Shown here: one piece after another, positions 2,166 through 63,093 of the stretch
How the letters are laid out: every line of letters starts with the position of its first letter
How positions within the stretch are numbered: the stretch's first letter is position 1
NCBI GenBank assembly: GCA_041389425.1
Contig: JAWKRX010000021.1
Location: forward strand, 16,075 to 80,074
Direction: 5' to 3'
DNA length: 64,000 bases
DNA from: Myxococcota bacterium
Lineage (GTDB): Bacteria > Myxococcota_A > UBA9160 > UBA4427
Notes under the pieces: generated by a model
The model's database searches: none
Seen by the model: the letters and a program-made list of their open reading frames with translations, nothing else
Told to the model about the DNA's origin: nothing
Position numbers and translations under genes: made by a program

Positions 2166-2249
2166 GCAAAAGTCGACTGCCAGTGTCGAGCGCGATCCGA
2201 TCGTCGGATCTAGGCTGGCCCGTCGACGCGCGCCAGAGAAGACCCGTCC

Positions 2250-3494: not shown

Positions 3495-3551
3495 GCGAAC
3501 ACGTCGAGCTGTTCCGACTCGACGACGCGAATGGCCGCGTCACCCGCTGGC

Positions 3552-3578
3552 CCTCAGAGGTGGACCGATGAATGCACC
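3552..3578. repeat. Left terminal inverted repeat of IS relic
   Basis: Manual reverse-complement comparison with 4752-4778: 24/27 identical. Confidence 0.75.
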
Positions 3579-3606
3579 CGGCACGAACCCTGCGTAGTCG
3601 GGGTTC

Positions 3607-4702
3607 ATGTCGAACCTCACCTTCCTCCGCCGGCCCCCCTTCTGCCCCAACCCCGACTGCGATTCCCGAACGAATCCAGCCACCTGGCGCTTCCAGCGCA
3701 AAGGCTTCTACCCACGCAGCCAGCCCCCGCATCGCATCCAGCGCTACCGCTGTTCACACTGCAGCCGCTACTTCAGTTCACAGACCTTCGCGGCCACCTA
3801 CTGGCTCAAGCGCCCTCGGCTCCTCGAGTCCGTCTTCCACCGCCTCGTCGCCTGCTCTGCTCTGCGCCAGATCGCCCGAGAACACCAGGTCTCCCACTCG
3901 ACCATCCGGACCCTCTCGGACCGATTGAGTCGCCACTGCCTCCTCTTCCACGAGCGCCTCCGCCCCAAGACCACACCGACTGAGCCCCTCGTCCTCGACG
4001 GGTTCCGGACCTTCGAACACAGCCAGTACTGGCCCATGGACGTGAACCTCGTCGTCGGGACGTCGCTCTTCTTCGTCTACGGCTTCAACGACGTCGAGCT
4101 GCGGCGAAGCGGGGCGATGCGGCCCGCCCAGCGGACGAGGCGCGCCGTGCTCGAGAGGCGACACGGCCGGCCCGATCCCGATGCGACCCGCAAGCGAGTC
4201 GAGGCCTTGCTGCGGCGGGTGATTCCAGCGCGGGCGAGGCCGTGCTTCGAAGCGACGAGCACCCGGCCTACGTCCGGGCCATCGCGCGGTGCTGGGACCG
4301 GACATCCTGCACGAGCGGACCAGCTCGAAGGCGCGTACGACACGCAATCCGCTCTTCCCGGTGAACCTTGTCGGACCTGCTGATCCGGCACAGCAGTGCG
4401 AATCATAAGCGGGAGACGATCGCGTTTTTCGAAGCGGCGTCAGTCGGCGCTGTACCGGCTGGCGGCATGGGTCGTGTGTGGCGCAACTACATGAAGGGGC
4501 GGTCGGAGAATCGGCGTCTCGGTCCGCCGGCGATGGCGTTGGGCTGATCGGCGAGGCGCTCACGGTTCGGGAAGTTCTTCAGAAGAGGCTGTTTCCGGAG
4601 CGGGTTCTACCCGAACGGCTACTTCGGGAGTGTTATTTCGGGCGGATCCCGACGCGGGCGATCGTGCGTTGTGCGTCGCATCGGGCGAGGTACGCGGTCT
4701 AG
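3607..4702 (+). pseudogene. Transposase pseudogene (multiple frameshifts)
   Basis: The N-terminus 'CPNPDCDS...RYRCSHCSRYFSSQTF' is a zinc ribbon. Protein-like sequence then jumps between all three frames: '...EAVLRSDEHPAYVRAIA', 'ILHERTSSKARTTRNPLFPVNL', 'LLIRHSSANHKRETIAF', 'SKRRQSALYRLAAWVV', 'WRNYMKGRSENRRLGPPAMALG', 'LIGEALTVREVLQKRLFPERV...'. At least 4 frameshifts are needed to join them. Confidence 0.7.
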
Positions 4703-4751
4703 GTCAAACGGAGAATCGATCAGCCGACGGGCGAAGGGTTTCGTTGGAAGA

Positions 4752-4778
4752 GGTGCATTCTTCGGTCCACGTCTCAGG
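4752..4778. repeat. Right terminal inverted repeat of IS relic
   Basis: Reverse complement of 3552-3578 (24/27). Overlaps the stop codon (4774-4776, minus strand) of the neighbouring CoA-transferase gene. Confidence 0.75.
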
Positions 4779-10296: not shown

Positions 10297-11375
10297 AGCG
10301 GGCTCGGATGGCGGTCGCGTGGATGCAGGCGCAGGGCGTCGTCCGGATGCCGCGCCAGCGCGGGGAGTGCGTCGACGACTTCGACGCCCGCGGCCTCCGC
10401 CGAGGCCCGCATCGCGCGGTGGGCCTCGGCAAAGGGCGAGTCCGCGATCTCGAAGGGCAGCGGCAGCAGCAGCAGGACGAAACGCCCGCCGCTGTCGCGC
10501 GTGCGCTCCGCGAGGGCCGCGATCCGCTCGAGCGTCGGCTGCCAGGCGGCGGGTTCATGGAGCGCGCGATACCAGGCGATCGTCGCGTTCGTGACGCTTC
10601 GATCCGCGAAGAAGCGCTTCACCAGATCGACGATCCGGAGCCGGCCGCGCACGCTCTGCCCGATGCGCGTCGAAGTCGGCGACCGTTCGAGCCGGGTCCA
10701 GCCCTCGTCGAGCATGTCGTGGATCGGCGATTCGGGCCGGGGCGCGGCGCCCGGGATCGGATCGTTCATGAAATAGCCGTAGATCAGGAGATCCGGGGCG
10801 AGCTGGCGCAGAGCCCACCGCGCGGACCGTTCGATGCCGGGCAGATCCGTATCGCCGCGGCCCAGGTTCAGGACCTCGACGGAACTCGCGGCGAGACCGG
10901 AACGGGGCGTGCCCCGTTCATGCTCGAACGCGCGCTGCAGACGGGCTTCGAGCAGCCGGGGATAGGCCAGGGCTTCGGGCAGGCCGTGGCCAGCGGTGAA
11001 GCTGTCGCCCACGACGACGACGCGGCGGACGCCGGACCGTTTCGGCCCGATCTTGCGTTCGCGAAAGCCCGAACGGTCGAGCTCGGCGGTGACGGCCCAG
11101 GGTGTCTCGCGCCATCGCTCGCGGAGCTCGTCGGGATTCTCGAGACGCGCCGCGAGACGCTCGCGCAGCGCGTCGTCCGAGAGATCGAGATCGAAGGCAC
11201 CGGTCGGATTCGTGTCGTAGGCCATCAATCGGAAGCCGGGCCCGCGGAACTCCTGGAGGAAGGGCCCGCTCTTCGGCAAGGAGAGCACGCGCAGCCCGAT
11301 CTCGCCGGCGGCGAGACCCACGAGAGCACCGATCGAGACGAGGAGGGCACGCGCGGCGACCGTTCGCGCCCTCAT
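10206..11375 (-). CDS. SGNH/GDSL-family hydrolase with N-terminal membrane anchor
   Basis: Start ATG at 11375 (MRARTVAARALLVSIGALVGLAAG). Block I is 'VVVVGDSFTAGHG' and the block V-like end is 'DRHPSP'. The start overlaps the upstream stop (ATGA 11372-11375). Confidence 0.75.
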   Translation of the reverse strand: MRARTVAARALLVSIGALVGLAAGEIGLRVLSLPKSGPFLQEFRGPGFRLMAYDTNPTGAFDLDLSDDALRERLAARLENPDELRERWRETPWAVTAELDRSGFRERKIGPKRSGVRRVVVVGDSFTAGHGLPEALAYPRLLEARLQRAFEHERGTPRSGLAASSVEVLNLGRGDTDLPGIERSARWALRQLAPDLLIYGYFMNDPIPGAAPRPESPIHDMLDEGWTRLERSPTSTRIGQSVRGRLRIVDLVKRFFADRSVTNATIAWYRALHEPAAWQPTLERIAALAERTRDSGGRFVLLLLPLPFEIADSPFAEAHRAMRASAEAAGVEVVDALPALARHPDDALRLHPRDRHPSPLYTRVVAELLEPVALDALASPAAGRERSGR

Positions 11376-13033
11376 GTCCCCGCCGATTCTTCGAGCGCAG
11401 GTGCGCCCGACCGGGGCGGCCTCTCGCCAGGCGGTGCCGCTCGCACCTCCGTCTCCGGAGCGCTTCTTCGCGTCATGACCCAGAACTGCCCGTACCGCTT
11501 CACCGGCGCGAAACGTCGCTTCAGGAAGCGATCGATCTCCGGGGCGAAGGCCGCGAGCGAGCGGTCCGGCAGGGCGTCGATCGAGACCGGGGAGTACACG
11601 GCGACGCGCGCGGGGGATCGATCGATCTCGTCGATGAATTCCGCAACCTCGGCGTCGGTCGTGAGGTAGCCCGGAAAGAGCCAGTCGAAGCGCGTCGGAT
11701 TGGGGCGATCCGCCAGGAAATAGACGATCGGGTACCACGGCAGCACGACGATCGGCTCGCCGGGCGCGGTGCGCCGGCGCAGATCGGCGATCAGATCGTC
11801 GAGGGCCTGCGATCGCGCGACGAGGGGCCCGCCGGGCATGATCTCGAGCTTGTCTCCTGAATCGCGATGGCGGCGCAGCGCGCGGTCGAATTCGTGGATG
11901 CCGAGCGAGGCGACCAGTGCGAGCAGGACGAGGGGATGGGCGATCCAGGCGGTCCGCGCCGGAGCCCATCGCCGCCAGCCCCGGGCGAGCCAGTCCGCGC
12001 CGAGGACATAGGCGGGGAAGAGGACGGGCGCGAGGTGGTAGTAGTCGGAGCGGCCGGTCGCTCGCAGATAGAGAACGGCGCCGAAGAGCGCGAGCGCGAG
12101 CCGCTCGAGCGTCGCCGGAGCCAGCGGCTCCGCGGATCGCGATCGGCGCCGATGCCACTGTGCGCGGGCGAACTCGAAGAGCGCCGCGAGATAGAGCACG
12201 AGCGGGATCCGGAACTCCCAGCTCACGAACCATCGGCGGATGCCGCGCCGGCTCCACTCGCCGGGCCAGAGCTCGAAGCCCGGCATGGGGAGGTTGAACT
12301 CGCCGCCCTCGAGATACTGGCCGAAGGATGTCCAGAAGACCGCCAGCAGGAGATCGCCGAGCGCACCCTGCATGGCGTAGAAGAAGCCGATCGGAACGAC
12401 GACGGCCGACACCCCGAGCGCGATCCAGGCGAGCTGCCCGAACAGCTTCGAGCCGAGCCCCGAGCGCGCGAGCAGCACCGCGGTTCCCGCGAGCCCGAGT
12501 CCGACCGCCGGCGCGAGCCGGAACGCGAGAGCGAGCGCCGAGAGCACGCCGAGCCCGAACAGCGCACCGCGCCCGATCGAGCCGCGCTCGTCCGCGCGCG
12601 CGAGCAGCAGCAGCGCCGCCATCGGAACGGCGCCGTACAGATGGGCGTAATGACAGCCCTCGAGGATCACGTGCCAGCCGGTCCCCGCCACGAGCGCCGC
12701 GGCGAGCAGCGCGAACGGCGTCTCCATCCAGCGCCGGCTCGCGACGAAGACGATCACGGCGAGAGCCAGCGTCATCGCGACGTGGAAGGCACGCACGACG
12801 AGCAGGCTCACGCCGAAGAGGTCGAAGAGCCAGGCGACGAGCTGGAAGCTCGCCGGGGGATAGACGGTATAGACGTCGCGATAGAGGATCTCGCCGGCGG
12901 CGAGGCGGCGTGCCCCGTTCGCGAGATGGCCTTCGTCGATCAGCCCCACGCCTTCCCGGAACAGCACCGCCTGATAGGCGATCCCGAACCCGAGCAGGAC
13001 GAGCAGGGCCCATCGATCGAATCGGCGCTCCAT
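11372..13033 (-). CDS. GT-C-type polytopic membrane glycosyltransferase (ArnT/PMT-like, tentative)
   Basis: 553 aa. About 10 TM helices in the first 370 aa are followed by a soluble C-terminal domain. The family call rests on architecture and resemblance. Confidence 0.6.
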   Translation of the reverse strand: MERRFDRWALLVLLGFGIAYQAVLFREGVGLIDEGHLANGARRLAAGEILYRDVYTVYPPASFQLVAWLFDLFGVSLLVVRAFHVAMTLALAVIVFVASRRWMETPFALLAAALVAGTGWHVILEGCHYAHLYGAVPMAALLLLARADERGSIGRGALFGLGVLSALALAFRLAPAVGLGLAGTAVLLARSGLGSKLFGQLAWIALGVSAVVVPIGFFYAMQGALGDLLLAVFWTSFGQYLEGGEFNLPMPGFELWPGEWSRRGIRRWFVSWEFRIPLVLYLAALFEFARAQWHRRRSRSAEPLAPATLERLALALFGAVLYLRATGRSDYYHLAPVLFPAYVLGADWLARGWRRWAPARTAWIAHPLVLLALVASLGIHEFDRALRRHRDSGDKLEIMPGGPLVARSQALDDLIADLRRRTAPGEPIVVLPWYPIVYFLADRPNPTRFDWLFPGYLTTDAEVAEFIDEIDRSPARVAVYSPVSIDALPDRSLAAFAPEIDRFLKRRFAPVKRYGQFWVMTRRSAPETEVRAAPPGERPPRSGAPALEESAGT

Positions 13034-16050: not shown

Positions 16051-17472
16051 TCAGCGAAGGAGCGCGCGGACCTCCGCTTCGACGACGGTCCCGTCGAAGA
16101 AGTCCGGATCCGCTTCCGCCCACATCGTCGCCGCGTTCTCGAAGACGAACTCGCGGAAGTCCTCTTCCTCGATGAGCCCGTCGTCGACGAGCTCCCAGGC
16201 CTCGGCGACCGTCTCGCTCATGTCGGTCACGTCCCAATGGCCGATGTCGGAGCTGAAGATCGCCCGCATGCGGGCTCCGAGCGGCAGGATGCCGCGATCG
16301 AAGCCGACGGCGTTCATCGGGTCGTCGGCCTCGCAGCCGAAGCGGAAGTTGCGCTCGAAGATCGCTTTGACGTCCGAAGCCTTCTCGATGCCCGTGCCCG
16401 CGAAGTCGTCGCGGAAGAGCCCGGGCCCGGAGAGATGGAGCAGGCCGGCCTCGAATTCGTCGAGGTGCTTCTTGAAGCGCTCGGAGCCGTGGCTCTCGAA
16501 GAGCTGGCGGATCCGCTTGCGATCCATCGAATCGGGATCGTAGGCGTGGATGCCCGGCAGGCCGCGCTTTTCGAAATGGCCGATCAGATCCGAATAGAGG
16601 TTCGAGGCCCAGCCGACGCCGCCTTCGAGGAAGCCGCAGCGCAGCTCCGGGAAACGATGGGGCACGCCGTGCATCACCATCTGCCGGCAGGTCGCCTCGC
16701 CGGCCGCCGCGAAGTTCCCGATGTGGTTGAAGACGTAGTTCGAGGGCGATAGCCGGCTGCCGAAGCCCATCGCGCTGGAATGGAAGTTCGGCGCGACCCC
16801 GAGCTCGACGCATTTCGCCCAGACCGGATCGTAGTCGTACGGGCTCTCCGGCCCGAAGGCATCGACCCAGCGGGCGCCGCGCACCTGGTCCCGGCCGAGC
16901 GGCCGGTAGACCAGACCGTTCAGCAGCACGACCTTGAGCCCGAGGACGTTCCGGCAATGCTCGAGCTCGGCGATCGCCTCCTCCGGGTCGTACATCGGGA
17001 TCATCGCGGCGGGCGTCATGCGATCCGCGAAGGGCGCGAACATCTCCGCCGCGCAGCGGTTGAAGGCGCGGATCGAGGCGTTCCGGAGCTCCTTCTGATC
17101 GAGGCTCATCGCGGTGAGCCCCATCGTCGGGTAGAGGACGCAGTAGTCGATGCCGAACTCGTCGAGGCGTTCGTAGAGCAGCTTCGGGAGCATCCCCGTC
17201 GCGCGATCGAGCGAGTTCTTCGCGGGATAGGGCCACCAGGTCAGCTTGAAGACCCCGAGCGCCCGCTGCTCGTCGAGGGGGAGCGACTCGAGCCGGCGGC
17301 CCGCTTCGACGACGGCGTCGAACTCCTCGGCGAGCTTGCGCCCGCCCTCCTCGACGAGGAAGTCGCGCACGGCGGGCAGGAACTCGATGATGTGGCCGTC
17401 GGCGTCGATCACCGGGTGATCGAGCCGCGCGCGGACCGCGCGCGAGCTCGCGGAATCGCCCTGGGACATCAT
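16051..17472 (-). CDS. Amidohydrolase-2 family protein (second paralog)
   Basis: Start ATG at 17472 (MMSQGDS...RLDHPVIDADGHIIEF). Supporting segments are 'YPTMG', 'APNFHSSAMG' and 'FSSDIGHWD'. The C-terminal 473 aa of track ORF 16051..18873. Confidence 0.85.
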   Translation of the reverse strand: MMSQGDSASSRAVRARLDHPVIDADGHIIEFLPAVRDFLVEEGGRKLAEEFDAVVEAGRRLESLPLDEQRALGVFKLTWWPYPAKNSLDRATGMLPKLLYERLDEFGIDYCVLYPTMGLTAMSLDQKELRNASIRAFNRCAAEMFAPFADRMTPAAMIPMYDPEEAIAELEHCRNVLGLKVVLLNGLVYRPLGRDQVRGARWVDAFGPESPYDYDPVWAKCVELGVAPNFHSSAMGFGSRLSPSNYVFNHIGNFAAAGEATCRQMVMHGVPHRFPELRCGFLEGGVGWASNLYSDLIGHFEKRGLPGIHAYDPDSMDRKRIRQLFESHGSERFKKHLDEFEAGLLHLSGPGLFRDDFAGTGIEKASDVKAIFERNFRFGCEADDPMNAVGFDRGILPLGARMRAIFSSDIGHWDVTDMSETVAEAWELVDDGLIEEEDFREFVFENAATMWAEADPDFFDGTVVEAEVRALLR

Positions 17473-17510
17473 CGCCTCCTTCCCGCCGGGCCTCCCGCCC
17501 GGCCTCTCGC

Positions 17511-18779
17511 CTAGCGCAGAGAATCGACCTTCACGACCTTCGTCTTCGGCTTGCCCGGCGCGGAGATCGGAAAGAGGTAGCGCCAGTACATGTGGCCCTT
17601 CGCCCGCCCTTCCGTGTCCAGCCAGTTCGGGACGCCGGGATCGCGATGGGCGACGACGATCCGGTAGCTGCCGTCCTTCTCGTACTCGACCTGGTTGCGG
17701 TTCAGCGAGATGCGGCGATTCGCGTAGTCGTAGCTCTGCATGAAGGCGTTCCAGAGCACGACGTTCGCGAAGCGACACTCCGGGAAGCGGCCCGTGATGA
17801 CGAGCGCCTCGTCGGGCGCGAGCTCGTAGTTGGCCGAGGCGTACCAGGCATGCGTATTGCCGTAGGCGTTCTGGCCGGAGGCCGAGCGCCACTGGCCGGC
17901 GGGGTTGAACTGGTTGGGGACGAGCGAGGTCCAGCCGAGCTGCTTCGCCATCTCGGGGGACGTCTTGCGAAACGTCATCGCGCTGTGGTCGCGCACGAAG
18001 TTCGCGACCCATTGCAGCCGGGCGGCGTTGCGGGCATCGCCGCCGTTCGGCGCGAGCGGCTCGGGATCGAGGACCTCGATCGCGATCGGGATGACGCGCC
18101 CGGGGATCGTCGCGACGCTCTGGCGGGACTCGTGATAGTGGCGCGTGGTGATCTGGCTGGAGTTGGGGCCCAGCCGCAGCCAGTTGCCGGAGGCGGGCTT
18201 CGTCTGGCTCACGATGATCTCGTAGGAGCCGTCGCTGTTGATCTCCATCTCGTCGTCGCCGAGCGCCGCCGACGAGCCGCGCGCCGCATGGCCCTCGGCC
18301 GAGCCGTCCTCGATGGTGAACGACGTGAAGGTCGCGGCGCCGACGTTGCCCGTGACGCGATAGGTCTTGTCGGGGCGGATCGCGGCGAAGTAGTAGAGCG
18401 AGTCGGGATTGCAGCCGAGGAGCTTGCGCGTCGGCGTCACGTAGGGCTTGAAGACGGGCCGGTCGAGATCGGCCTCGAGCCAGAACTCGAGCCCGGTATG
18501 CAGGATGTGGGCGATCGCGCGCTCGGCCTCGGCGAGCTCGGCCGGATCGGTGAAGCCGGCTTCCGGGGTCAGCAGCTTCGACTCGACTTCGCGGATCACG
18601 TCGAAGATCGCGTGCATCGCCTCGCGGGATGCGATTCCGCCCGAGGCCGAGCCCGAGGCGGAGGCCGCGCCGTGGCTGTCGGCCCGCGCCGTGCCCGCGG
18701 CGAGGCCGCCGAAGCTCGCGAGCCCTGTCGCCATGCCGCCCGCCACGCCCACGCTCCGGATGAATTCGCGCCGATCCAT
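17511..18779 (-). CDS. Tat-exported DUF1214-like protein
   Basis: I chose ATG at 18779 (MDRREFIRSVGVAGGMATGLASFGG, a twin-arginine signal). It is preceded by GGAGG 6-7 nt upstream. The C-terminus 'FANVVLWNAFMQSYDY...DGSYRIVVAHRDPGVPNWLDTEG...YWRYLFP' matches the DUF1214 pattern. Confidence 0.75.
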   Translation of the reverse strand: MDRREFIRSVGVAGGMATGLASFGGLAAGTARADSHGAASASGSASGGIASREAMHAIFDVIREVESKLLTPEAGFTDPAELAEAERAIAHILHTGLEFWLEADLDRPVFKPYVTPTRKLLGCNPDSLYYFAAIRPDKTYRVTGNVGAATFTSFTIEDGSAEGHAARGSSAALGDDEMEINSDGSYEIIVSQTKPASGNWLRLGPNSSQITTRHYHESRQSVATIPGRVIPIAIEVLDPEPLAPNGGDARNAARLQWVANFVRDHSAMTFRKTSPEMAKQLGWTSLVPNQFNPAGQWRSASGQNAYGNTHAWYASANYELAPDEALVITGRFPECRFANVVLWNAFMQSYDYANRRISLNRNQVEYEKDGSYRIVVAHRDPGVPNWLDTEGRAKGHMYWRYLFPISAPGKPKTKVVKVDSLR

Positions 18780-52581: not shown

Positions 52582-53631
52582 TCAGCCCTGGGACTGGGCC
52601 TGCGATTGCGTCCGGGTCTGCCGGCGCGCCGCCGCACGATCGTTCGCGTGGACGCGCGCGCGCAGGGACTCGATCGATGGCGCGAGGAACTCTTCGTGGA
52701 TGGCGTCGCAGAGGATGGCGGTCTCGTCGACGACCCAGGTCGCCACGCGATGGATGCCCTGGCGCCGGACTTCGTCGATGTCGAGCTGGAGCACCGAGCC
52801 GCGGAAGCGCTCGAGCGATTCCCAGGCCGGGCTGCGCCCGTTCGAATCGCTGCTCTGCCGCAGCCGCTCGAGCAGCCCGCGCACGCGGTCGAGGTTGTGG
52901 AGGACCGAGCGCGGGAAGGTCCGCTCGAAGAGCAGGAACTCGGTGACGGCGGCGCCCGAGAGGACGTTCGACGCGCGCTTGAAGAAGGGCTCGTAGGCCG
53001 AGCAGGAGCGCAGAATCGCGAGCCAGCGCGCCGCCATCGCGGCGGACTCCTCTTCGACCGCGGAGGATTCGGCGAGCGCGTGGTGCCGCACGTCGAGGAT
53101 GCGGGCCGTCTGTCCGACGCGCTCGAGCGCGCGGCCGAGCTTCATGAAGGTGAAGGGATCCTCGTGGAGCATCGTGCTGTAGCAGATGCCGTGGAACATC
53201 ATGCAATCGGAGCTCAGCCGCTCGTAGAACGCGTCGCGCTGGCGATCGAACAGGCGCTTGGCCGAGCGGCTCGTCAGCCAGAGCCACGACTGATTGACCG
53301 CCTCCCACATCTCGACACTCATGACCTCGCGGATCGTCCGCGCGTTCTCGCGCACGGCGCGCATCGAGCTGTAGATCGAGGCGGGATGCCGATCGTCCCA
53401 GACGAGGTAGCTCTGGACGATCTCCGCATCCTCCATGCTCGCGGCACCGATCCGATCGAGGAAGTCCTGCTCCTGTCCGACCACGATCACGAGCGGTCGC
53501 CAATGCTCCGAGCCGTCCGAGCCGACGTCGAGGCTGAAGCTCGCCGTCACGTCGAGCAGCCGCGCCCAGGTATCGACGCGCTCGAGATAGCGCGTGAGCC
53601 AGAAGCAGGAGTCGGCGACGCGCGAGATCAT
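52582..53631 (-). CDS. Alpha-E domain protein
   Basis: Start ATG at 53631. '[28 protein letters not shown]' is the canonical alpha-E N-terminus. '[19 protein letters not shown]' is the second helical repeat. The start overlaps the ATP-grasp stop (ATGA 53628-53631). Confidence 0.9.
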
Positions 53632-55109
53632 TTCTTCTTCTCTCCCACGACCCAGGTATCCTTCGAGCCGCCACCCTGACTCGAGTTGACGACGTAGGAG
53701 CCCTTGCGCAGGGCGACGCGCGTCAATCCGCCCGGCAGGACCCAGCTGCGATCGCCCGTGACGATGAAGGGCCGCAGATCGACCCGCCGCGGCTCGACGC
53801 CCTTCGGTGTCCAGGTCGGGCAGCTCGAGAGCTCGATCCGGCTCTGCGCGATGTAGTTGCGCGGATCGGCGGCGACGCGCTGCTTGAAGTCGGCGAGCTC
53901 CGCGCGCGTCGCGCTCGGGCCCATCAGCATGCCGTAGCCGCCGGCCTCGTTGACGGGCTTCACGACCAGCTCCGCGAGGTGATCGAGGACGTAGCGGCAA
54001 TCGTCCGGCCGCGCACAGACCCAGGTATCCACCTGCGCGAGCAGCGGCTCCTCCGAGAGATAGAAGCGGATCATGTCGGGCACGAAGGGATAGACGCCCT
54101 TGTCGTCGGCGACGCCGTTGCCGACCGCGTTCACGATCGCGACGTTGCCCGCGGCCCAGGCGTCGATCAGCCCGGGCACGCCGAGCATGCTGTCGGCCCG
54201 GAAGACGTCGGGATCGAGGAAATCGTCGTCGATCCGCCGGTAGATCACGTCGATCGGCGCGGGCCCCTGGGTCGTCTTCGCGAAGACGCGCCGGCGCTCG
54301 ACGAACAGATCGCTGCCCTGGACCAGCTCGCAGCCGATGCGGCGCGCGAGATAGCTGTGTTCGAAGTAGGCGGAGTTGAAGGCGCCCGGCGTCAGCACCA
54401 CCATGCGCTTCGTGCCGCCGGCGCCCGGGGCGACCGCGTTCATCGCCTCGCGCAGCTTGTGCGGATAGCTCTCGACCGCCTCCACCCGGACGTTGCGGAA
54501 GATCGCGGGGTAGGTCTTCTTCATCGTCTCGCGATTCTCGAGCACGTACGAGACGCCCGACGGGACGCGCACGTTGTCCTCGAGCACGCGGAAGCGCCCC
54601 GCTCCGTCGCGGATCAGATCGACGCCCGCGATGTGGATCCAGACGTCCTTCGGCGGCCGGATGCCCTTCAGCTGCGGCCGGTAGCCCTTCGAGCCCTCGA
54701 CGAGATGGCGCGGGATCACGTCTTCCTGGAGGATGCGCTGGTCGCCGTAGACGTCGGCGAGGAAGCAGTTCAGCGCCTTGATGCGCTGGACGAGCCCGGC
54801 TTCGATGCCCCGCCATTCCCGCGCGGCGACCACGCGCGGGATGAGGTCGAAGGGGAAGATGCGCTCGGTGCTCGAGTTGCCCTCGTAGAGGGTGAACGTG
54901 ATGCCGCCTCGGAGGAAGGTCGCGTCGGCGAGGCTCTGGAGGTGCCGGAAGTCGCGGCGCGTCAGCTCGTTGAGGCGGTCGACGACGGCGGCGACGGCGG
55001 AATGGGGCTTGCCGTCCGACTCGAAGAATTCGTCGTAGGTGCCCTCGAGGCGCTGGTAGCCGTCGAAGATCGCCTTGCCCACGCCACCTCTCGTCGGTGT
55101 CTGCGCCAT
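53628..55109 (-). CDS. Circularly permuted ATP-grasp (type 2) amidoligase-like protein
   Basis: 493 aa. '[10 protein letters not shown]', '[35 protein letters not shown]', '[18 protein letters not shown]' and 'VDLRPF' are typical of the DUF404/DUF407 CP-ATP-grasp family. Confidence 0.9.
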
Positions 55110-55244
55110 CTCCCGAGATTAACGGGAGTCCCCGAATTTCGCGCCGACAGCAGCTCTTCGTGGCATCCCCGCTCGCGCAGCGGACGGCACGAATGGGCCG
55201 GATCCGGCCGGTCGGCCGGCGGGCGCGGGATTCGATACGCTGCG

Positions 55245-57119
55245 TTGATCGTGGATGGATCCCCCTTCTCGCTGCACGAACAATTCGCGCTTTCCTTCGA
55301 CGGAAGGGCATCGCCCGCGGTCTCCTTGAGGGGCGAGGCGGAGGATCAGCCGCACCTGCTGCCCTCGACCTGGGGCTTCGGCTGGTATCCCGACAACCAG
55401 CGGGCGGCCGCCGTCCTGGGCGACGTCGGGCGTGTCCAGCCCCTGCCCCGGCCCGGATTCCGGGAGCGCCCGGAAGAGATCGTCTCGAGCCTGTTCCTCG
55501 GGCATACCCACGGCCTGCATCAGGCCTCCGGTGTCGACGAGCCCCAGCCCTGGGTCAAGTCCTATGCCGCACGCCAATGGCTGTTCTCGAGCGCGGGCGA
55601 GCTCTCGCCGGACCTGCGCACGGTGCTCTCCCTCGACGAGCAGTTCGACATCGCACCGGTCGGCCCCTCGCCCGCCGAGCACGCCTTCAGCTGGATCGTC
55701 GCCGCCATCCGGAGCGAGGGCTGCCGGACGATCGAGGAATTCGGCTGGCCCCGGCTGCAGGCGCTGCTGCTCCGGCTGAACGAGTTCGGTACCGCGAGCT
55801 TTCTGCTCTCCGACGGCATCGACCTCGTCGCCTACCGCGATCTGCACGAACGCGCGCCGCTCCACTGGGCACGCATGACGCCGCCCCATGCGACGACGCG
55901 CCTCGACGGACGCACCTTCACGATCGATTTCGACGGGCCGCTCGACGTCTCGCGCACGCTGCTGGCGATCTCGACCTATCCGATGCGGGGGGCGCAGTGG
56001 ACGCCCATGGAGCTCGGCGAGCTGCGCGTCGCGCGCCGCGGCGCCTTCGTCTGGAGCAGCCATCCGAACGGCATCGAAGAGCAGGTCTTCTCCTTCCTGC
56101 GCCTCTCGCCGCCCCGCAGCCGGCAGGCCTCTTATTCGCCCTATCCCCACGCGACCGCCGAGCAGCAGCAGCTCGCGACCGCGAACCCGCCCGTGGCTCC
56201 GCAGCCGCGCTCCGCTCCCGAAATCGCGACGCTCTCCGTCGTTCACGAGACCATCTACCGCTATTCGATGCCCGTCGAACGCAGCAGCCACCGATTCTGC
56301 CTCCGCCCCGTGCGCGACGACCGCCAGGAGGTCCTCGAGCATTCCCTCGCCGTCTCGATCGACGGCCTCTGGCGCGACTTCGAGGACGTCTTCGGCAATC
56401 GCGCGACGCTGCTCGAAGTCTCTGTGCCCTTCCAGGAGATGCGCATCGAGAGCCGCTCGACGCTGCGGGTCGCGGGCGTGCACGCCTCGCAGTTGAAGAG
56501 CCCCCTCCGCAACCAGCAGATCCCGCTGGTCTGGATGCCCTGGCAGCGGCAGATGATGCAGGCCTACCTGATGCCGCCGGAGCTCCCGGAGCCCGAGCTG
56601 CGCGAGCTCTCCGAGTTCGCGATGAGCTTCGTCGTCCGCAACGACTACGACCTCGTCGAGACCCTGCTCGACATGAATCGCACGATCTACCGCGACTTCG
56701 TCTACGTCCCCGGATCGACGAACATCGAGACGACGCCCTTCCAGGTCTACGCCCAGCGGCGCGGCGTCTGCCAGGATTTCGCGAACGTGATGATCTGCCT
56801 GGCCCGGCTGCTCGGCGTCCCGGCCCGCTACCGCGTCGGATACATCTACACCGGCGCGAGCTACGAGAACCAGATCCAGTCGGATGCGTCGCACGCCTGG
56901 GCGGAGGTGTACCTGCCGTGGACGGGCTGGTTCGGATTCGATCCGACCAACGGCTGCCTCGCCGGCTCCGACCACGTCCGCACCGCCTGCGGCCGCCAGT
57001 TCCGCGACGCGGCGCCGACGACGGGGACGATCTATCGCGGGGGTGGCAGCGAGACCCTCGAAGTGAAGGTTCGCGTCGAGCGCCTCGACGGGTACGACGT
57101 GCCTTTGCGCGGGGTCTAG
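55245..57119 (+). CDS. Fusion protein: degenerate class-II glutamine amidotransferase (Ntn, YafJ-like) domain plus Bact_transglu_N/transglutaminase-core cysteine peptidase domain
   Basis: The N-terminal half follows YafJ-type GATase blocks with catalytic positions replaced ('(M)IVDG' where MC is expected; 'WLFSSAGEL' for 'W.FaHNG'; 'GPSPAEHAF' for 'G.TDSE.F'). The C-terminal half has 'LSVVHETIYRYS', 'RGVCQDFANVMICLARLLGVPARYRVGY' and 'HAWAEVYLPWTGWFGFDPTN'. TTG 55245 is chosen as start (GTG 55251 is the alternative). Confidence 0.85.
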   Translation: MIVDGSPFSLHEQFALSFDGRASPAVSLRGEAEDQPHLLPSTWGFGWYPDNQRAAAVLGDVGRVQPLPRPGFRERPEEIVSSLFLGHTHGLHQASGVDEPQPWVKSYAARQWLFSSAGELSPDLRTVLSLDEQFDIAPVGPSPAEHAFSWIVAAIRSEGCRTIEEFGWPRLQALLLRLNEFGTASFLLSDGIDLVAYRDLHERAPLHWARMTPPHATTRLDGRTFTIDFDGPLDVSRTLLAISTYPMRGAQWTPMELGELRVARRGAFVWSSHPNGIEEQVFSFLRLSPPRSRQASYSPYPHATAEQQQLATANPPVAPQPRSAPEIATLSVVHETIYRYSMPVERSSHRFCLRPVRDDRQEVLEHSLAVSIDGLWRDFEDVFGNRATLLEVSVPFQEMRIESRSTLRVAGVHASQLKSPLRNQQIPLVWMPWQRQMMQAYLMPPELPEPELRELSEFAMSFVVRNDYDLVETLLDMNRTIYRDFVYVPGSTNIETTPFQVYAQRRGVCQDFANVMICLARLLGVPARYRVGYIYTGASYENQIQSDASHAWAEVYLPWTGWFGFDPTNGCLAGSDHVRTACGRQFRDAAPTTGTIYRGGGSETLEVKVRVERLDGYDVPLRGV

Positions 57120-57152
57120 CTCGGGCGGGCGCCTCTTCTGATCTCACAAGAC

Positions 57153-57297
57153 GCGCGCGGCGCGGGGCATCGGATGCGGATGGCTCGCCCTTGGCACGGC
57201 CGGCGTCGCTTCTCGGAAGGAGCTGCCTCGGCCATCGCCGAGCAGTGGCGAGCTTCGGCTGCGCTTTACTCCGCATCCGATGCCCCGCGCCGCGCGC
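57153..57297. repeat. Palindromic repeat element, copy A (28-bp perfect stem closing an 89-nt conserved core)
   Basis: 57153-57180 'gcgcgcggcgcggggcatcggatgcgga' is the exact reverse complement of 57270-57297. The core 57181-57269 is about 89% identical (79/89, manual alignment) to the reverse complement of 57611-57699. Confidence 0.85.
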
Positions 57298-57540
57298 TCG
57301 CCTGGGTGCTGGAGCTGCGAAGCGGCGAGCCAGTTCCGGTCGACGAGGCGAAGGCGGACGACGAGGCGCTCGCCGCTCCGAAGAGGGGGGTCTTCCGCGC
57401 GACCGCCTCGACCGATCCACTCGCCCGAATCCGCACGATCGGCGACAAGCGGACGATCCCATTCGATCCGAAGGCGCGTCGCTCTCTCGCGGAATAACAC
57501 CACGGCATGGCGCCACCCGATCCCGAGCGATCGTGCCTGC

Positions 57541-57771
57541 CCCGTCCCCCGCCCCGGCACGCCCCGTCCTCGCACCCCGCGAGCGCCCGGCGCGAGAGGG
57601 GGGATGCGAAGTCAAGCGCAGCCGAAGGTCGCCGCTGCTAGACGAACGCCGAGGCAGCTCCATCCGAGAAGCGACGATGGCCGTGCCAAGGGCGAGCCAT
57701 TCGCATCCCCCCTCTCGCGCCGGGCGCGCCTTGTACCGCGACTCGAGGCGCGTGCCGGGGCGGGGGACGGG
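57541..57771. repeat. Palindromic repeat element, copy B (inverted relative to A) with an additional outer stem
   Basis: The inner stem pairs 57586-57610 with 57700-57724 (25/25). The outer stem pairs 57541-57562 'cccgtcccccgccccggcacgc' with 57750-57771 (22/22). The right outer arm abuts the Anbu stop codon (57772-57774). Confidence 0.85.
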
Positions 57772-58572
57772 TCAGGCGTGATCCGGCCCCGTGGTGAAGT
57801 TGGCGGAAGGATCCGTCGCCGCACCCACCGTCGCGTCCTCGCTCGACTTCGGGAGGGGCTCGAGCCGCCCGAAGATCTCGACGAAGCTCTTCTGCCAGGT
57901 TTCCCGGAGCCTCTGGTAGTAGGCGGTCTCGGCGCCGATCCGGACCTGCGACGAGAGCGCGAAGGTATCGGCCGCGTAGGTCGCGAAGTCGAACGGGAGG
58001 CCGACGGTGATGTTCGATCGGATCGTCGCGTCGAGCGAGACGAGGGCGAGCTTCGCGGCGTCGCCGAGGGCGAGAGAGTGATGGACCAGGCGATCGAGGA
58101 TCGGCTTGCCGTATTTGGTCTCGCCGATCTGGAGGTAGGGCGTCTCGTCGGAGACGCCGATGTAGTTGCCCTGCGGATAGATGAGGAAGATGTCGGGGGC
58201 GCGGCCGCGGATCTGGCCGCCGAGGATCAGCGTGACCTCGCCCATCACGTTGCTGCGGACGAAGGCGGCGCCGTGACGCTCCTGGATCTGGCAGGACAAG
58301 CGGCCGACGTATTGTGCCGCCTCGAACAGGTAGGAGACGGAGAGCAGCGACTCGCCGCTCGGCGCGCGGTCGAGGTCGCGGCCGATCTCGTCGATCAGCT
58401 CGCGCGTCGTCGCGAGGTTGCCGGCCGCGAGCAGCACGAAGACGCGATCGTCCGCGGGACGGAAGACGTGCATCTTCCGATAGCTCGTGACGTAGTCGAC
58501 GCCCGCGTTCGTGCGGGTATCCGCGGCGAAGACGATGCCTTCGTCGACGCGGATCGCCAGGCAATAGGTCAT
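57772..58572 (-). CDS. Anbu-type proteasome beta-subunit homolog (Ntn peptidase)
   Basis: Start ATG at 58572. 'MTYCLAIRVDEGIVFAADTRTNAGVDYVTSYRKMHVF' has Thr right after Met, Asp 16 residues after the Thr and Lys 31 residues after it. This is close to the Thr1/Asp17/Lys33 spacing of proteasome beta subunits. There is no propeptide. Confidence 0.9.
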   Translation of the reverse strand: MTYCLAIRVDEGIVFAADTRTNAGVDYVTSYRKMHVFRPADDRVFVLLAAGNLATTRELIDEIGRDLDRAPSGESLLSVSYLFEAAQYVGRLSCQIQERHGAAFVRSNVMGEVTLILGGQIRGRAPDIFLIYPQGNYIGVSDETPYLQIGETKYGKPILDRLVHHSLALGDAAKLALVSLDATIRSNITVGLPFDFATYAADTFALSSQVRIGAETAYYQRLRETWQKSFVEIFGRLEPLPKSSEDATVGAATDPSANFTTGPDHA

Positions 58573-58660
58573 TCGAGAAGCTCCAGGCCGCGCCGAATCG
58601 ACTCGAGACCCGACGAGGGGCGCGGACCGGACCCCGACCAGGCGGCGGGGGTCGCCCGCT

Positions 58661-61600
58661 TCATCCCCACGGATGACGCGGCGAGGCCCAGCGCAGATCG
58701 AGGATATGCGGGAAATGCGGATGCGGCTCGACCGGAACCGGCCGGAACGAGCCCTGCATGTGCCCGCGATGCTCGAAGCGCGCGAGACGACGGCTCTCGG
58801 CGGCCGCGGCGTTGATCGGGCGGACCTCGGAAGCCCGGCCACCGGGATGGACGACGTGGTACGTACAGCCGGCGACGCTCCGCTCGTTCCAGACGTCGTA
58901 GAGATCGACGTGCAGCGGCGAATGGATGGGGATGCGCGGATGCAGACAATGGGGCGGCTGCCAGGCGCGGTAGCGGATGCCGGCGACGAACTCGCCGTTG
59001 GTCCCGGTCGGCCGCATCGGCACCTCGAAGCCGTTGCAGAGCACCTTGTAGCGCTCGCTCGCGAAGCCGAAGACCTTGACCTGCAGCCGCTCGACGGAGG
59101 AGTCGACGTAGCGCGCCTGCCCGGTCGAGGTCGACTCCTCGCCGAGCACGTGCCAGGGCTCGAGGGCGCCGCGCAGCTCGAGGCGCATCGTGTCGAGGGT
59201 GATCTCGCCGTAGTACGGGAAGCGGAACTCGAAATGCGGCTCGAACCAGCGCCGGTCGAACGCGTAGCCGGACTGGCCGAGCTCCGAGAGCACGTCGTCG
59301 AGATCGTGCTCGACCCAATGGGGCAGCATGAACTGGTCGTGCAGCGCCGTGCGCCATTTGATGAGCCTTCGCTCGTCGGGCGTCTTCCAGAAGCGCGCGA
59401 GCAGCGCGCGGACCAGCAGCTGCTGGACGCTGCTCATGCGCTCGTGGGGCGGCATCTCGAAGGCGCGCAGCTCGAGCAGGCCGAGACGCCCGGTCGGCCC
59501 GTCGGGCGAATAGAGCTTGTCGATGCAGAACTCGGAGCGATGGGTGTTCCCGGTCATGTCGACGAGGATGTTGCGGAGGACGCGGTCGACGACCCAGGGC
59601 GGCGCGGATTCGTTCGCCCGCGGCAGCTGCGCGAGGGCGAGCTCGAGCTCGTAGGCGGAGTCGTCGCGGGCCTCGTCGACGCGGGGCGCCTGGGAGGTCG
59701 GGCCGATGAAGCGGCCCGAGAAGAGGAACGAGAGCGCGGGGTGGTTGTGCCAGTAGCGAAGGAAGCTGCCGAGCACGTCGGGGCGGCGCAGGAACGGGCT
59801 CTGCTCCGGCGTGAGGCCACCGAGCACGACGTGATTGCCGCCGCCCGATCCGACATGGGCCCCGTCGATCTCGAACTTCTCCGCGATCAGGCGCTCGCGG
59901 CGCGTCGCGTCGTAGAGCTCTTCGTTCTGCCGCACCGCCTCGCGCCAGGACGTCGTCGGCGGGACGTTGACCTCGATGACACCGGGATCCGGCGTGATCC
60001 GGAAATCGCGCAGGCGCGGATCGCGCGGCGGCGGATAGCCCTCGAGCTGGACGGGCAGGCCCGTCTCGCGGGCCGTCGCCTCGATCGCGGCGACCAGCTC
60101 GACCCAGGGCTCGAGCTCGAAGAGCGGCGGCAGGAAGACCTTCAGCTGGCCGCCGCGCGGCTCGACGCAGAGCGCGGTCCGCACGATGCCGGGCGCCGAT
60201 ACGCCGCGGAGCGGCCGGGCGTCCGGCGAAACGTCCATGAGCGGGCGAGCGCCCTCGCCCGGCGTCGGATCACCGCCGACGAGCCCGGCGATTCCGGCGC
60301 GCTCCTTCGACTGCGGCCGGAGATCCGCGGGCTCGGCGCGCCGCCGGAGGGGGAAGACGAACTCGCTCGGGAGCGGTGCCCGGGGAGCCGCGGGATCGAC
60401 CTGGAATTCGAGCGGGAGATCGCCCGTCGCCGCCCAGGGCAGCGAGTCCATCGGCAGCCGGAAGCCCATCGGCGAGTCGCCGGGCATCAAATAACAGCGC
60501 TCGGCACGCAGGAACCAGTCGCCGTTGACCCAGCCGCTCCGCCAGGCGAGCGGCAGGACCCAGCCCACGATCCGGTCGAGGCCCCGATCGAAGATGCGAC
60601 CGAGGCGCGCGCGTTCGGTCTCGTCCGAGAGCTTCGCATCGAACGGATCGACGTTGGTCGGCAGGCGCCGCTCGCGCCAGAGGTAGTACCAGGCGTCCTC
60701 GTAGGCGTCGATCAGGCGCGGGCGCTGCAGGCCGAGGCGATCCGCCAGGCGCGCCGCGAAGCGCTTCGCGTCGGCCTCGTCGTGGCCGTAGTCGCGATCC
60801 GAGTCGGCGATGAGCGCCGGATCGCGCCAGAGCGGAAGCCCGTCCGCGCGCCAGTAGCAGGCGAAGGCCCAGCGCGGCAGCTGCTCGCCCGGATACCACT
60901 TCCCCTGGCCGTGCTGGACGACACCACCGGGCGCCCAGAGCTTCATCAGGCGCCGCGTCAATCGATCGGCGATCTCCTCCTTGCGGCCCCCGAGCGCCGC
61001 GACGTTCCATTCGGGCTCGTCGGGCTCTTCGGCGCTCACGAAGGTCGGCTCGCCTCCGACGCTGAGCTGTACGCCGGCCGCTCGCAGCTCTTCGTCGACG
61101 CGATCGCCGAGGGCGAGGACCGCGGCCCACTCCGCCTCGCCGTAGGGCTTCGTGACGCGCGCCCGATCGACGACGCGCGTCACGCTCATCTCGAAGTCGA
61201 ACTCGCATTCGACCTTCTCGACCGCGCCCGTGATCGGCGCGGCGCTGATCGGATTGGGCGTCGCCGCGAGCGGGATGTGGCCCTCGGCGGCGAGCAGGCC
61301 GGAGGTCGGATCGAGGCCGATCCAGCCGGCGCCCGGGACATAACATTCGCACCAGGCATGGAGATCGGTGAAGTCGCTCGCCGGCCCCGGCGGGCCCTCG
61401 AGCGGCTTCTGGTCGGGCATCAGCTGGATCAGATAGCCGGACACGAAACGGGCGGCGATGCCGAGGCGGCGCAGGACCTGAACCAGCAGCCAGGCCGAAT
61501 CGCGACAGGATCCGCGGCCGAGCTCGAGCGTCTCGGCGGGCGTCTGCACGCCTGGATCCATGCGCACCACGTATTCGACGGCGGCGGTGATCGCGCGATT

Positions 61601-62044
61601 CGTCTCGACGAGCAGATGGTTGGTGTCGCGCGGCCGGCGGTCGAGCTTGGCGAAGAAGGCCTCGAATGCCGGAGTCGACGGGAGGCAGACCAGATAGGGC
61701 TCGAGATCGCGCGCGACGTCCTGCGCGTACTCGAACGGCCATTCCTGGGCGGACTCCTCGAGGAAATAGTCGAAGGGGCTGTAGGCCGCGAGGTCCGCGA
61801 CGATGTCGACGTTCACCTCGAACAGATCCGTCTTGTCGGGCACGACGATCCGCGCGAGATGATTGCCGTGCGGGTCCTGCTGCCAGTTGAGGAAATGCGT
61901 CTTCGGATGGACGTCGAGGGAATAGCGGTGGATCGGCGTGCGGTTGTGGGGCGCAGGGCGCAGCCGGATCGTCTGCGGGCCGAGCAGGACGGGCCGAGCG
62001 TAGCGATAGCGGGTGCGGTGATGGAGAGCGACGCGAATCGTCAA
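58661..62044 (-). CDS. Large transglutaminase-like / DUF2126 (putative glutamine-synthetase-like amidoligase) protein
   Basis: The likely start is TTG at 62044 ('(M)[18 protein letters not shown]'), with GAGGA 7 nt upstream. The transglutaminase core is '[29 protein letters not shown]...[23 protein letters not shown]'. The long C-terminal region is 'GGEPTFVS...[14 protein letters not shown]...[10 protein letters not shown]'. Confidence 0.9.
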   Translation of the reverse strand: [1127 protein letters not shown]

Positions 62045-62403
62045 TCGGGATCCTCGGGGCCGGGGGGCGCGAACCGCGAAGATAGGCCGGTTCGCGTTCG
62101 AAAGCGCCTGATGCACTTGCTGCGCACGGGATGCGCGCGGCGCGATCCCCCTGCGTGACAGGAGTGCGCTCTCTTTGGCGCACTCCCGCAGCCGTCCGCG
62201 CACCTGGCACCACCCGGGGGCCAATCCGACGCCCGATCGTGTCCGAGAGCATCTCGACGCCACCCGCGAATTGCCGGTACCCTGGGCTCCGCCGCCCGGC
62301 ACCACCCATCCCGCACGCGCTGCGCAGCGTCGACACTTCGTGTCCGGCGACCGATCGCGACGCGTCCGGGAGGCACGAAGAACGAGCAGAATACGAGGAG
62401 CCC

Positions 62404-63093
62404 ATGAGCCGCATTCATTTCATCGGAGGAGAAAAGGGAGGCGTCGGCAAATCCGTCGTCGCGCGCCTGCTCGCGCAGTACTGGATCGACCGGGGAACGC
62501 CCTGGACGGGATTCGACACCGACCGTTCCCACGGCGCACTGCTGCGCCACTACGGCGAATTCTCCCAGCCGCTCGAAATCAGCAAGATGGAAGATCTCGA
62601 TCGCCTGATGGAGGCGGCGACGGAGGCCGATCAGCAGGTCCTCGTCGATCTCGCCGCGCAGTCCGAGCAGGATCTGCATCGCTGGATCGCGACGAGCGGC
62701 GTCCTCGAGCTCGCCTCGGAGCACGGCATCGAGGTCCTCTTCTGGCACGTCATGGACGACGGCAAGGACTCGCTCGAGCTGCTCGACCGCCTGCTCGGCC
62801 GCTACGGCTCACAGGCGCATTGCGTGATCGTGCTCAACCACGGCCGCGGCGAGAACTTCGCGACGTTCCACAAATCGCCGGTCGCGCAGAAGGTCGTCGA
62901 GATGGGCGTGCCCGTGCTCGAGCTGCCCGCGCTCTACAAACCGACCATGCGCAACATCGATCATCGCGACAAGAGCTTCTGGGCCGCGATGACCCACAAA
63001 GAGGGCCAGGGCGCGCTCGGCCTCGTCGAGCGCCATCGCGTCAAGGTCTGGATGCGGAACGCGAACGCGGAGTTCGAGAAGCTCGGAATCTGA
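62404..63093 (+). CDS. TraL/MobD-like ParA-superfamily P-loop ATPase (orphan)
   Basis: Start ATG 62404. 'MSRIHFIGGEKGGVGKSVVARLLAQYWIDRG...FDTD' carries the deviant Walker A. It is collinear by eye with RP4 TraL, including 'ELPALYKPT' and 'RHRVKVWMRNA' near the C-terminus. Confidence 0.75.
   Translation: MSRIHFIGGEKGGVGKSVVARLLAQYWIDRGTPWTGFDTDRSHGALLRHYGEFSQPLEISKMEDLDRLMEAATEADQQVLVDLAAQSEQDLHRWIATSGVLELASEHGIEVLFWHVMDDGKDSLELLDRLLGRYGSQAHCVIVLNHGRGENFATFHKSPVAQKVVEMGVPVLELPALYKPTMRNIDHRDKSFWAAMTHKEGQGALGLVERHRVKVWMRNANAEFEKLGI

Follow-up and report, generated by a model that had tools for sequence, protein, structure and literature searches.

The 64,000-nucleotide stretch analysed here (the window; contig JAWKRX010000021.1, from a lineage of uncultured Myxococcota) holds a five-gene locus that includes Anbu, a relative of the proteasome, and this locus is a lineage-specific form of a widespread and functionally unsolved ligase/cleavage neighbourhood. 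Its genes encode an Alpha-E protein, a circularly permuted (CP) ATP-grasp protein, a protein that joins a class-II glutamine amidotransferase (GAT-II)-like domain to a transglutaminase (TG) domain (the fusion), Anbu, and a large protein in which another TG domain is joined to DUF2126 (TG-DUF2126). We consider the identity and placement of these five genes to be as good as certain. The full explanation that we prefer, which combines this gene content with a generic ligate-and-cleave mechanism, is probable, and the mechanism taken alone is a tentative proposal to which we give less than an even chance. Anbu has solved structures and is strongly induced under nitrogen limitation, and after almost twenty years it has no known substrate. 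As the initial annotation of the window had noted, neither a substrate nor a role has been demonstrated for it (PMC5666114, PMC6376114, PMC8665760), and a 2021 paper still listed its function as unknown (PMC8665760).

Because long spurious open reading frames (ORFs) are common at ~70% G+C, the composition of the window, gene calls were based on third-position GC and profile matches. The families associated with Anbu (CP-ATP-grasp, Alpha-E and a transglutaminase-like gene) all fall within 6 kb, here and in the related loci. The CP-ATP-grasp gene (53628-55109, minus strand; 493 aa; third-position GC 0.93) matched CP_ATPgrasp_2 (E 3.5e-164) and CP_ATPgrasp_1 (E 7e-141) in Pfam, with family scores of 546.6 bits (cut-off 32) and 469.4 bits (cut-off 23.1), and its product is predicted to be an ATP-dependent carboxylate-amine ligase. 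The Alpha-E gene (52582-53631, minus strand; 349 aa; PF04168, E 8e-78, 262.5 bits over profile positions 1-294 of 294) begins with an ATG that shares bases with the stop codon of the ATP-grasp gene that precedes it (ATGA), an overlap read directly in the sequence at 53631-53628 and in agreement with the coupling annotated earlier. Alpha-E adjoins CP-ATP-grasp in every related locus of our neighbourhood comparison. The fusion gene (55245-57119, plus strand; 624 aa; Pfam GATase_4, Bact_transglu_N and Transglut_core) diverges from this pair, as had been described, across a gap of 135 bp (55110-55244) whose sequence was also read directly. Anbu (57772-58572, minus strand; 266 aa; Pfam Proteasome, E 1.9e-9) lies 88 nt 3' of the TG-DUF2126 gene (58661-62044, minus strand; 1127 aa; Bact_transglu_N, Transglut_core and DUF2126, 1247 bits, E = 0) and is likely co-transcribed with it. 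The initial annotation had assigned all five genes to these families at these positions, including the 1127-aa protein ahead of Anbu on the same strand, and the Pfam matches, together with those of Anbu to Anbu chains in the PDB, confirm the assignments. NCBIfam had no model for the five core proteins except for sub-threshold archaeal proteasome matches for Anbu.

The arrangement of these genes was compared in related genomes, in which loci carry our labels L081 and so on, and by neighbourhood censuses. The latter took the best 80 hits per search among GTDB species representatives, located partners by tblastn with window queries (E <= 1e-5, within 10 kb) and counted loci with flanks of at least 8 kb, of which there were 53 seeded with Anbu and 40 seeded with the fusion. 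The nearest fusion homologues (96-98% identity) are in uncultured Myxococcota, e.g., the metagenome-assembled genome (MAG) KLAP59. Locus L081, with a fusion protein of 84% identity, has the gene order and orientation of the window and a spacer of ~590 bp, and L082/L128 (62% identity) keep the fusion, Anbu and TG-DUF2126 genes convergent as in the window, with no adjacent ATP-grasp gene. The window layout is retained in relatives whose fusion proteins are 56-98% identical, L121-L125 and L131 agreeing with it, and the divergent ATP-grasp/fusion gap recurs in L081, L121-L125, L127, L129, L131 and L202. The split layout is, then, a conserved feature of the window's clade. Anbu identities track those of TG-DUF2126 within the clade, a pattern that fits vertical descent with repeated loss.

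Across wider distances the same components keep company. Among the fusion-seeded loci, 28/40 have CP-ATP-grasp/Alpha-E, usually co-directional and immediately upstream, 29/40 have TG-DUF2126 and 6/40 have Anbu; these loci come from Myxococcota, Planctomycetota, Gemmatimonadota, Melainabacteria, Eremiobacterota and Alpha-/Gammaproteobacteria. Among the Anbu-seeded loci, CP-ATP-grasp and Alpha-E are present in 35/53 and TG-DUF2126 in 8/53 (mostly Gammaproteobacteria), no partners were found for 16/53, and the GAT-like domain is present in 0/53. That the five genes of the window are chance neighbours without a functional link draws on nothing but their split into three orientations. It is already refuted by the recurrence of the components together in Myxococcota, Planctomycetota, Gemmatimonadota, Melainabacteria, Alpha-/Gammaproteobacteria and others, with CP-ATP-grasp/Alpha-E and TG-DUF2126 both within 10 kb in 21/40 fusion loci, and by the conserved order and orientation in relatives; the initial annotation had named chance co-occurrence as an outcome that would refute it. 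Two of the other claims of that annotation did not survive the censuses. The arrangement was thought distinctive, but Anbu stands beside TG-DUF2126 in 8 of 53 Anbu loci and the fusion family numbers 1069 matches at E <= 1e-5; and the extra domain on the small transglutaminase was thought special, but the fusion is the usual partner of CP-ATP-grasp/Alpha-E and of TG-DUF2126. That TG-DUF2126 is a frequent direct neighbour of Anbu is a by-product of this comparison.

The N-terminus of the window Anbu reads MTYCLAIRVDEG, so that Thr directly follows Met, as annotated. Thr1, Asp17 and Lys32 (T2, D18 and K33 when numbered from Met), which are the catalytic residues of Anbu as listed in PMC6376114, are invariant together with M1 in the 12 Anbu sequences that we aligned. 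Phmmer searches of the PDB returned 5LOY (4.5e-67), 5NYJ (2.9e-64), 5NYF (1.1e-63), 5NYW (9e-61) and 5LOX (8e-54), in alignments that span residues 1-241 of chains 240-251 residues long; the closest, 5LOY, is the Anbu-1 consensus design. The protein is a genuine Anbu without a propeptide. Its best matches in the Anbu-seeded census are gammaproteobacterial (53-60% identity), several of them encoded directly beside TG-DUF2126. Anbu proteins of the window's clade also have a C-terminal tail of ~25-30 residues that is rich in Pro, Thr and acidic residues (57772-57850 in the window) and has no counterpart in proteobacterial, cyanobacterial or solved Anbu sequences.

The partner encoded upstream, TG-DUF2126, starts at a TTG (62044) with GAGGA 7 nt upstream, and its DUF2126 domain (PF09899) scored 1246.9 bits over profile positions 1-826 of 826; a database search gave >8000 homologues. 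In the N-terminal TG domain the triad Cys180-His229-Asp245 is invariant in 41 sequences, and the two TG domains of the locus align triad to triad. The AlphaFold2 model has a predicted local distance difference test (pLDDT) score of 74.7, with several disordered stretches. Its TG domain matched the Cytophaga TG-like cysteine protease 3ISR in Foldseek (E 9e-13), and DUF2126 gave weak matches, over ~280-300 columns, to GlnA, GmaS and related chains (E 0.04-0.2, probability 0.5-0.96). On these model comparisons DUF2126 is plausibly a putative glutamine-synthetase-like amidoligase. A literature search found no paper naming DUF2126 or GATase_4 and no published assay of DUF2126 as an ATP-dependent ligase. 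In some fusion loci, a second DUF2126 protein without a TG domain is encoded beside TG-DUF2126 (L203, L130, L133, L140, L156, L170, L171 and L190); in L203, this observation and that of a glutaminase gene described below concern 671-6134 and 10939-12867.

The 624-aa fusion protein is composed of an N-terminal-nucleophile (Ntn) domain at about residues 12-277, a disordered linker (residues 280-322) and a TG-fold domain (residues 327-613), and its AlphaFold2 model (pLDDT 80.8) likewise has two domains joined by a disordered linker. Residues 14-277 matched GATase_4 in Pfam (E 2.7e-31), and a profile search with the N-terminal domain matched PDB 1TE5 (E 2.8e-23). Foldseek placed the same domain closest to 1TE5 (E 1.5e-13, target-normalised template-modelling score 0.75), with further matches to EgtC (E 1e-8), PurF and GFAT, so that the fold of residues 12-277 is that of the YafJ/EgtC class-II GATs (GATase_4; PDB 1TE5, 4ZFJ). 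The C-terminal domain matched 3ISR (E 1.4e-19), and its triad, Cys509-His550-Asp566, is intact, with columns that are invariant in 52 sequences.

We call the GAT-II-like domain of the window dead because its nucleophile Cys has become His and its AHNG has become SSAG. His11 occupies the position aligned with the nucleophile Cys2 of 1TE5, and in the oxyanion motif His-Asn is replaced by Ser-Ala. Judged by these positions, both the nucleophile and the oxyanion Asn have been lost and the domain is degenerate, which upholds the "dead Ntn" label of the initial annotation; it should not be filed as an amidotransferase. The start codon, TTG at 55245, is uncertain by ~10 codons, and no candidate start exposes Cys, Ser or Thr. 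Compared with YafJ/EgtC, in which an N-terminal Cys is accompanied by His-Asn-Gly, the window fusion has an extension of ~10 residues before the nucleophile position, then His and Ser-Ala-Gly, whereas the wider fusion family has Ser or Thr.

Of 51 fusion sequences from outside the window's clade, 36 have Ser at the nucleophile position, 15 have Thr and none has Cys; the Ser or Thr directly follows a possible start codon in 26 of the 51, and His-Asn or a close variant is mostly retained. Clade members, none of which retains His-Asn, have His (6 sequences), Ser (2), Gly or Ala there. A single database homologue, P0012, has Cys at this position. Since the family outside the clade combines Ser/Thr with His-Asn, it resembles a Ser/Thr Ntn amidohydrolase and not an amidotransferase, and the window's clade carries a decayed copy of it. 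In a subgroup (L134, L136, L137, L141, L144, L151, L156 and L174), REHQ-x-T places the conserved REHQ-x just before the nucleophile Thr. As in proteasome beta subunits, this extension may be a propeptide that is removed by cleavage; in several members the preceding codon is not a start codon. We regard the existence of a large Ser/Thr-type GAT-II-like-TG fusion family, in the operon slot of TG and Anbu, as the most useful new point of this analysis, and the decay of the fused domain in the window's clade, only some members of which have Anbu, is a further comparative by-product.

These patterns bear on the possibility that the Ntn position of the system is interchangeable, being filled by a monomeric Ser/Thr GAT-II-like domain fused to TG in most lineages and by Anbu in others, next to TG in either case. 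Anbu would then have taken over in the window's lineage, where the fused domain decayed into a binding module. Consistent with this are the equivalent slots of the canonical CP-ATP-grasp, Alpha-E, TG, Anbu order and the CP-ATP-grasp, Alpha-E, [Ntn-TG] order of fusion loci, the census counts (the GAT-like domain in none of the Anbu loci, Anbu within 10 kb in 6/40 fusion loci), and the Ser (36) or Thr (15) with mostly retained His-Asn outside the clade as against a variable nucleophile and no His-Asn inside it. However, five clade loci (L126, L127, L129, L201 and L202) have the degenerate domain without Anbu, and a Polyangiales group (L153, L154, L158, L163 and L169) has His-Asn-Gly with Anbu nearby; moreover, absence within 10 kb, in censuses of the best 80 hits per search, is not absence from the genome. 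We rate interchange of the two as unlikely, and the narrower proposal that Anbu replaced the fused Ntn domain in the window's clade is weakly supported. The idea that Anbu compensates for the dead Ntn domain was weakened in the same way, by clade members without Anbu and by the Polyangiales group with both. If the two were interchangeable, Anbu would be an amide/isopeptide hydrolase acting on the product of the two ligases rather than a general processive protease, the dead fused domain of the Myxococcota clade would have been kept as a module for binding or docking, and the fusion family would offer a tractable monomeric proxy in the hunt for the Anbu substrate.

The mechanism that we tentatively prefer is a generic one. 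CP-ATP-grasp with Alpha-E, on the one hand, and the DUF2126 domain, on the other, would be two ATP-dependent ligases that form amide or isopeptide bonds, possibly of gamma-glutamyl type, on some peptide or protein. The resulting bonds would be cut or transferred by Anbu, a Thr1 hydrolase, and by the two thiol domains with a TG fold. For the dead GAT-like domain, binding of a ligand or partner is probably the only role. A logic of peptide ligation and cleavage by thiol- or Ntn-peptidases has been restated in PMC3495828, and Iyer et al. 2009 is cited, in passages of PMC5666114, PMC6376114 and PMC3495828, as reading the Anbu operon as a peptide-ligation system. The Yersinia CP-ATP-grasp released phosphate from ATP (PMC6376114).

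Several observations weigh against this mechanism. In experiments with the purified protein, Anbu lacked peptidase activity and did not form a complex with the partners encoded in its operon (PMC6376114), and Fuchs et al., who described Anbu as an open split ring and not a closed barrel, favour a protease over a peptide-synthesis role (PMC5666114). The structural support for a ligase fold in DUF2126 is weak, given the Foldseek E values, and DUF2126 had no PDB match by sequence or by profile search. Anbu is missing from its slot in the clade members L126, L127, L129, L201 and L202, so that it is no obligate component of the locus. The picture of three transcription units gained nothing from a sigma-70-like promoter scan, which found no sites, and a sigma-54 consensus, allowing up to one mismatch, is absent across the 64-kb window. 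The 135-bp divergent gap had neither a sigma-70-like nor a sigma-54-like match, and a terminator scan gave two terminator-like sites, below the shuffled expectation.

By analogy with Pseudomonas, expression of the locus is probably tied to nitrogen limitation. In P. putida, PP_2685 (Anbu) and PP_2688 (CP-ATP-grasp) rose by log2 4.4 and 4.0 on nitrate versus ammonium (PMC8050072), Valas and Bourne made the same nitrogen-limitation point in a note in proof (PMC3235984), and a sigma-54 site has been predicted upstream of a Bradyrhizobium CP_ATPgrasp gene (PMC13207237); three loci with nitrogen-related neighbour genes, described below, also speak for this link. This induction also suggests a somewhat different purpose, namely nitrogen scavenging, in which amide-rich peptides or gamma-glutamyl compounds would be broken down or remodelled to ammonia or glutamate under scarcity, the TG-fold and Ntn enzymes serving as amidases and the ligases recapturing nitrogen. 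In addition to the Pseudomonas data, this possibility draws on the co-variation of domain abundance with urea-metabolism domains in marine metagenomes (PMC3597751), on the nearest solved relatives of the fused Ntn domain (the YafJ-like 1TE5 and EgtC, a gamma-glutamyl amidohydrolase), on the weak fold matches of DUF2126 to glutamine synthetase and gamma-glutamylmethylamide synthetase, and on neighbours in three loci. In L082, an ammonium transporter (Amt) gene and an 82-aa ORF lie immediately 5' of TG-DUF2126 on the same strand (16327-17846); in L203, a glutaminase gene (PF04960) is directly 3' of the fusion gene; and in L201, a glutamate symporter is encoded two genes away. The neighbour evidence is, however, anecdotal at three loci, no nitrogen-regulatory promoter was found in the sigma-54 search of the window, and two ATP-consuming ligases are left unexplained in a catabolic route. 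We consider nitrogen scavenging possible but rather doubtful; it overlaps the ligate-and-cleave mechanism more than it excludes it.

The four-gene Anbu operon described by Valas and Bourne (PMC3235984) is the closest known counterpart of the locus. In its canonical form it encodes CP-ATP-grasp (COG2308), Alpha-E (COG2307), a transglutaminase-like protein (COG1305) and Anbu, as in P. putida PP_2685-2688, the P. aeruginosa PA1733 region and Yersinia bercovieri. The window shares the four families, the coupling of ATP-grasp to Alpha-E, and an Anbu with Thr1/Asp17/Lys32 and no propeptide. Unlike the canonical operon, it has its genes in three orientations instead of one operon, its small TG has an N-terminal degenerate GAT-II-like domain, its Anbu follows TG-DUF2126 rather than the small TG, and the Anbu of its clade ends in the C-terminal tail of ~25 aa that proteobacterial sequences do not have. 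The extended system of Iyer, Abhiman, Burroughs and Aravind (2009) is said to comprise CP-ATP-grasp, Alpha-E, transglutaminase, an NTN-hydrolase and a TG-fused "COOH-NH2 ligase", all of which are in the window. According to the Pfam notes for Alpha-E and CP_ATPgrasp_1, which trace to the same work, the components include a circularly permuted COOH-NH2 ligase with a transglutaminase fused to it.

The Pup-proteasome system of Actinobacteria (PafA, Dop and the 20S proteasome) is a plausible analogue in its logic, in that a glutamine-synthetase-like ligase, if DUF2126 is one, stands beside a proteasome-family Thr1 hydrolase. Yet the window lacks both a small gene of Pup type and an AAA+ unfoldase, the ring of Anbu is split and open (PMC5666114), and DUF2126 has no detectable sequence relation to PafA/Dop. 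The window thus resembles the Pup-proteasome and is not a member of that system.

The spacer between the convergent fusion and Anbu genes (57120-57771) has the 652 bp given in the initial annotation and is, as stated there, strongly structured; it has no third-position GC signal and is non-coding. It consists of two inverted copies of a hairpin module of ~160 nt. Module A (57147-57304, plus strand) starts 28 nt after the fusion stop, with a CACAAG motif at 57145, in the sense orientation of the fusion gene. Module B (57577-57733, minus strand), oriented like Anbu, starts ~40 nt past the stop of that gene and is 88% identical to the reverse complement of module A. The centre between them (57305-57576) has no coding signal. 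Each module has a perfect 28-bp stem, and the two stems covary, differing by compensatory changes.

Two long hairpins with compensatory changes, found in the same place in L081, L121, L122 and L123 (>=84% identity), might be taken to mean that the spacer is specific to the locus and encodes either an RNA regulator or the small tag or substrate that is sought for the Anbu system. This is very improbable and close to refuted. The 19-nt repeat core, ATGGCTCGCCCTTGGCACG, occurs in 38 stretches in GTDB genomes, ~32 of them in four or five related MAGs and the rest stray. The carriers are STL-MYXA1, KLAP59, Fred_18-Q3-R57-64, L112 and SRP072547_co1_164, the "Spirochaetaceae" label of which is probably wrong. 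The module stands at ~30 other places in these MAGs, typically beside unrelated convergent genes. Its copies are paired, plus then minus, 400-600 bp apart, typically at the ends of convergent genes, and a module begins ~2-70 nt from the stop codon. From one locus to another, the sequences between paired modules are unrelated, and the centre in the window is conserved only with the orthologous locus L107. Against a locus-specific role also stand the absence of a coding signal and of an Rfam family (searches of the whole window and the spacer gave only sub-threshold matches to plant miRNA hairpins) and the orthologous spacers of more distant relatives, which lack the repeat: that of L082 is 35 bp, and L125, L128 and L131 have no repeat matches. 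Of the two features that the initial annotation had put forward for comparison, the split arrangement held up across the clade and the repeat-bearing spacer did not, being confined to the relatives of at least 84% identity. The spacer is a lineage-wide dispersed intergenic repeat and not part of the Anbu system. In L125, ~2.4 kb of extra DNA with long ORFs (4731-7170) lies between the fusion gene and Anbu, in the position of the repeat pair.

The repeat family has a variable, covarying outer stem of 26 bp and conserved asymmetric inner motifs, GCGAATGGCTCGCCCTTGGCACGG ... GGCTGCGCTTGACTTCGC. Aligning 43 copies gave 37 consensus pairs, 19 of which show double compensatory changes, and 97.7% of the cells are paired, compared with 86.9% in shuffled and 38-46% in slid controls. 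On the gene-sense strand, the outer stem has G-U in 2 cells and ~16 A-C mismatches, each of which would be G-U on the opposite strand. This asymmetry suggests that the complementary strand or single-stranded DNA folds, and that selection acts on the opposite strand or on the DNA itself. TTGGCACG occurs inside the repeat, without a -12 element. Like REP/BIME and ERIC elements, the repeat is a dispersed, multi-copy imperfect palindrome located past stop codons and in inverted pairs between convergent genes. A REP/BIME unit is 20-40 nt, though, whereas the module here is ~160 nt, with its variable 26-bp outer stem and asymmetric inner motifs. No RAYT-type transposase turned up, although no search was aimed at RAYT. 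We also considered the pair as a miniature inverted-repeat transposable element with a conserved core, and dropped this because the centres differ among loci and no target-site duplication was obvious by eye.

The initial annotation had recommended the locus as a good place to find the missing tag or substrate of the system, and this expectation was not borne out. Since the spacer is a repeat found across related genomes, it provides no special route to the substrate; the other intergenic regions have neither coding signal nor conservation, and the lineage is one of uncultured MAGs. We considered and dropped the idea that the spacer or 62045-62403 holds a small ORF or a gene for a tag, there being no coding signal and no conservation of the region. 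With its conserved layout, uncultured organism and lack of a candidate tag, the window leaves the question of the Anbu substrate unchanged. The comparative by-products do provide specific and cheap predictions for work on the Pseudomonas or Yersinia operons.

A sixth gene (62404-63093, plus strand; 229 aa), divergent from TG-DUF2126, encodes a TraL-like P-loop ATPase of the ParA superfamily that begins MSRIHFIGGEKGGVGKS (NCBIfam TraL, E 4e-12, below the family cut-off; Pfam CbiA, E 3e-4). The gene is in the same position in L081, L122, L131, L201, L126, L202 and L129, with 45-89% identity, and is absent in L082/L128. The ATPase may be a sixth, clade-specific component of the system. PADLOC, which identifies defence systems, had no match for any of the six proteins. 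The genes flanking the locus are unrelated to it (an ABC transporter, a SnoaL-like protein and an outer-membrane efflux protein). The DNA between the ATPase and TG-DUF2126 genes is not conserved and has no ORF. Upstream of TG-DUF2126, it contains a perfect 9-bp inverted repeat (62161-62186; GGAGTGCGC, 8 nt, GCGCACTCC), which lies inside an insertion of ~125 bp relative to L081 and L122.

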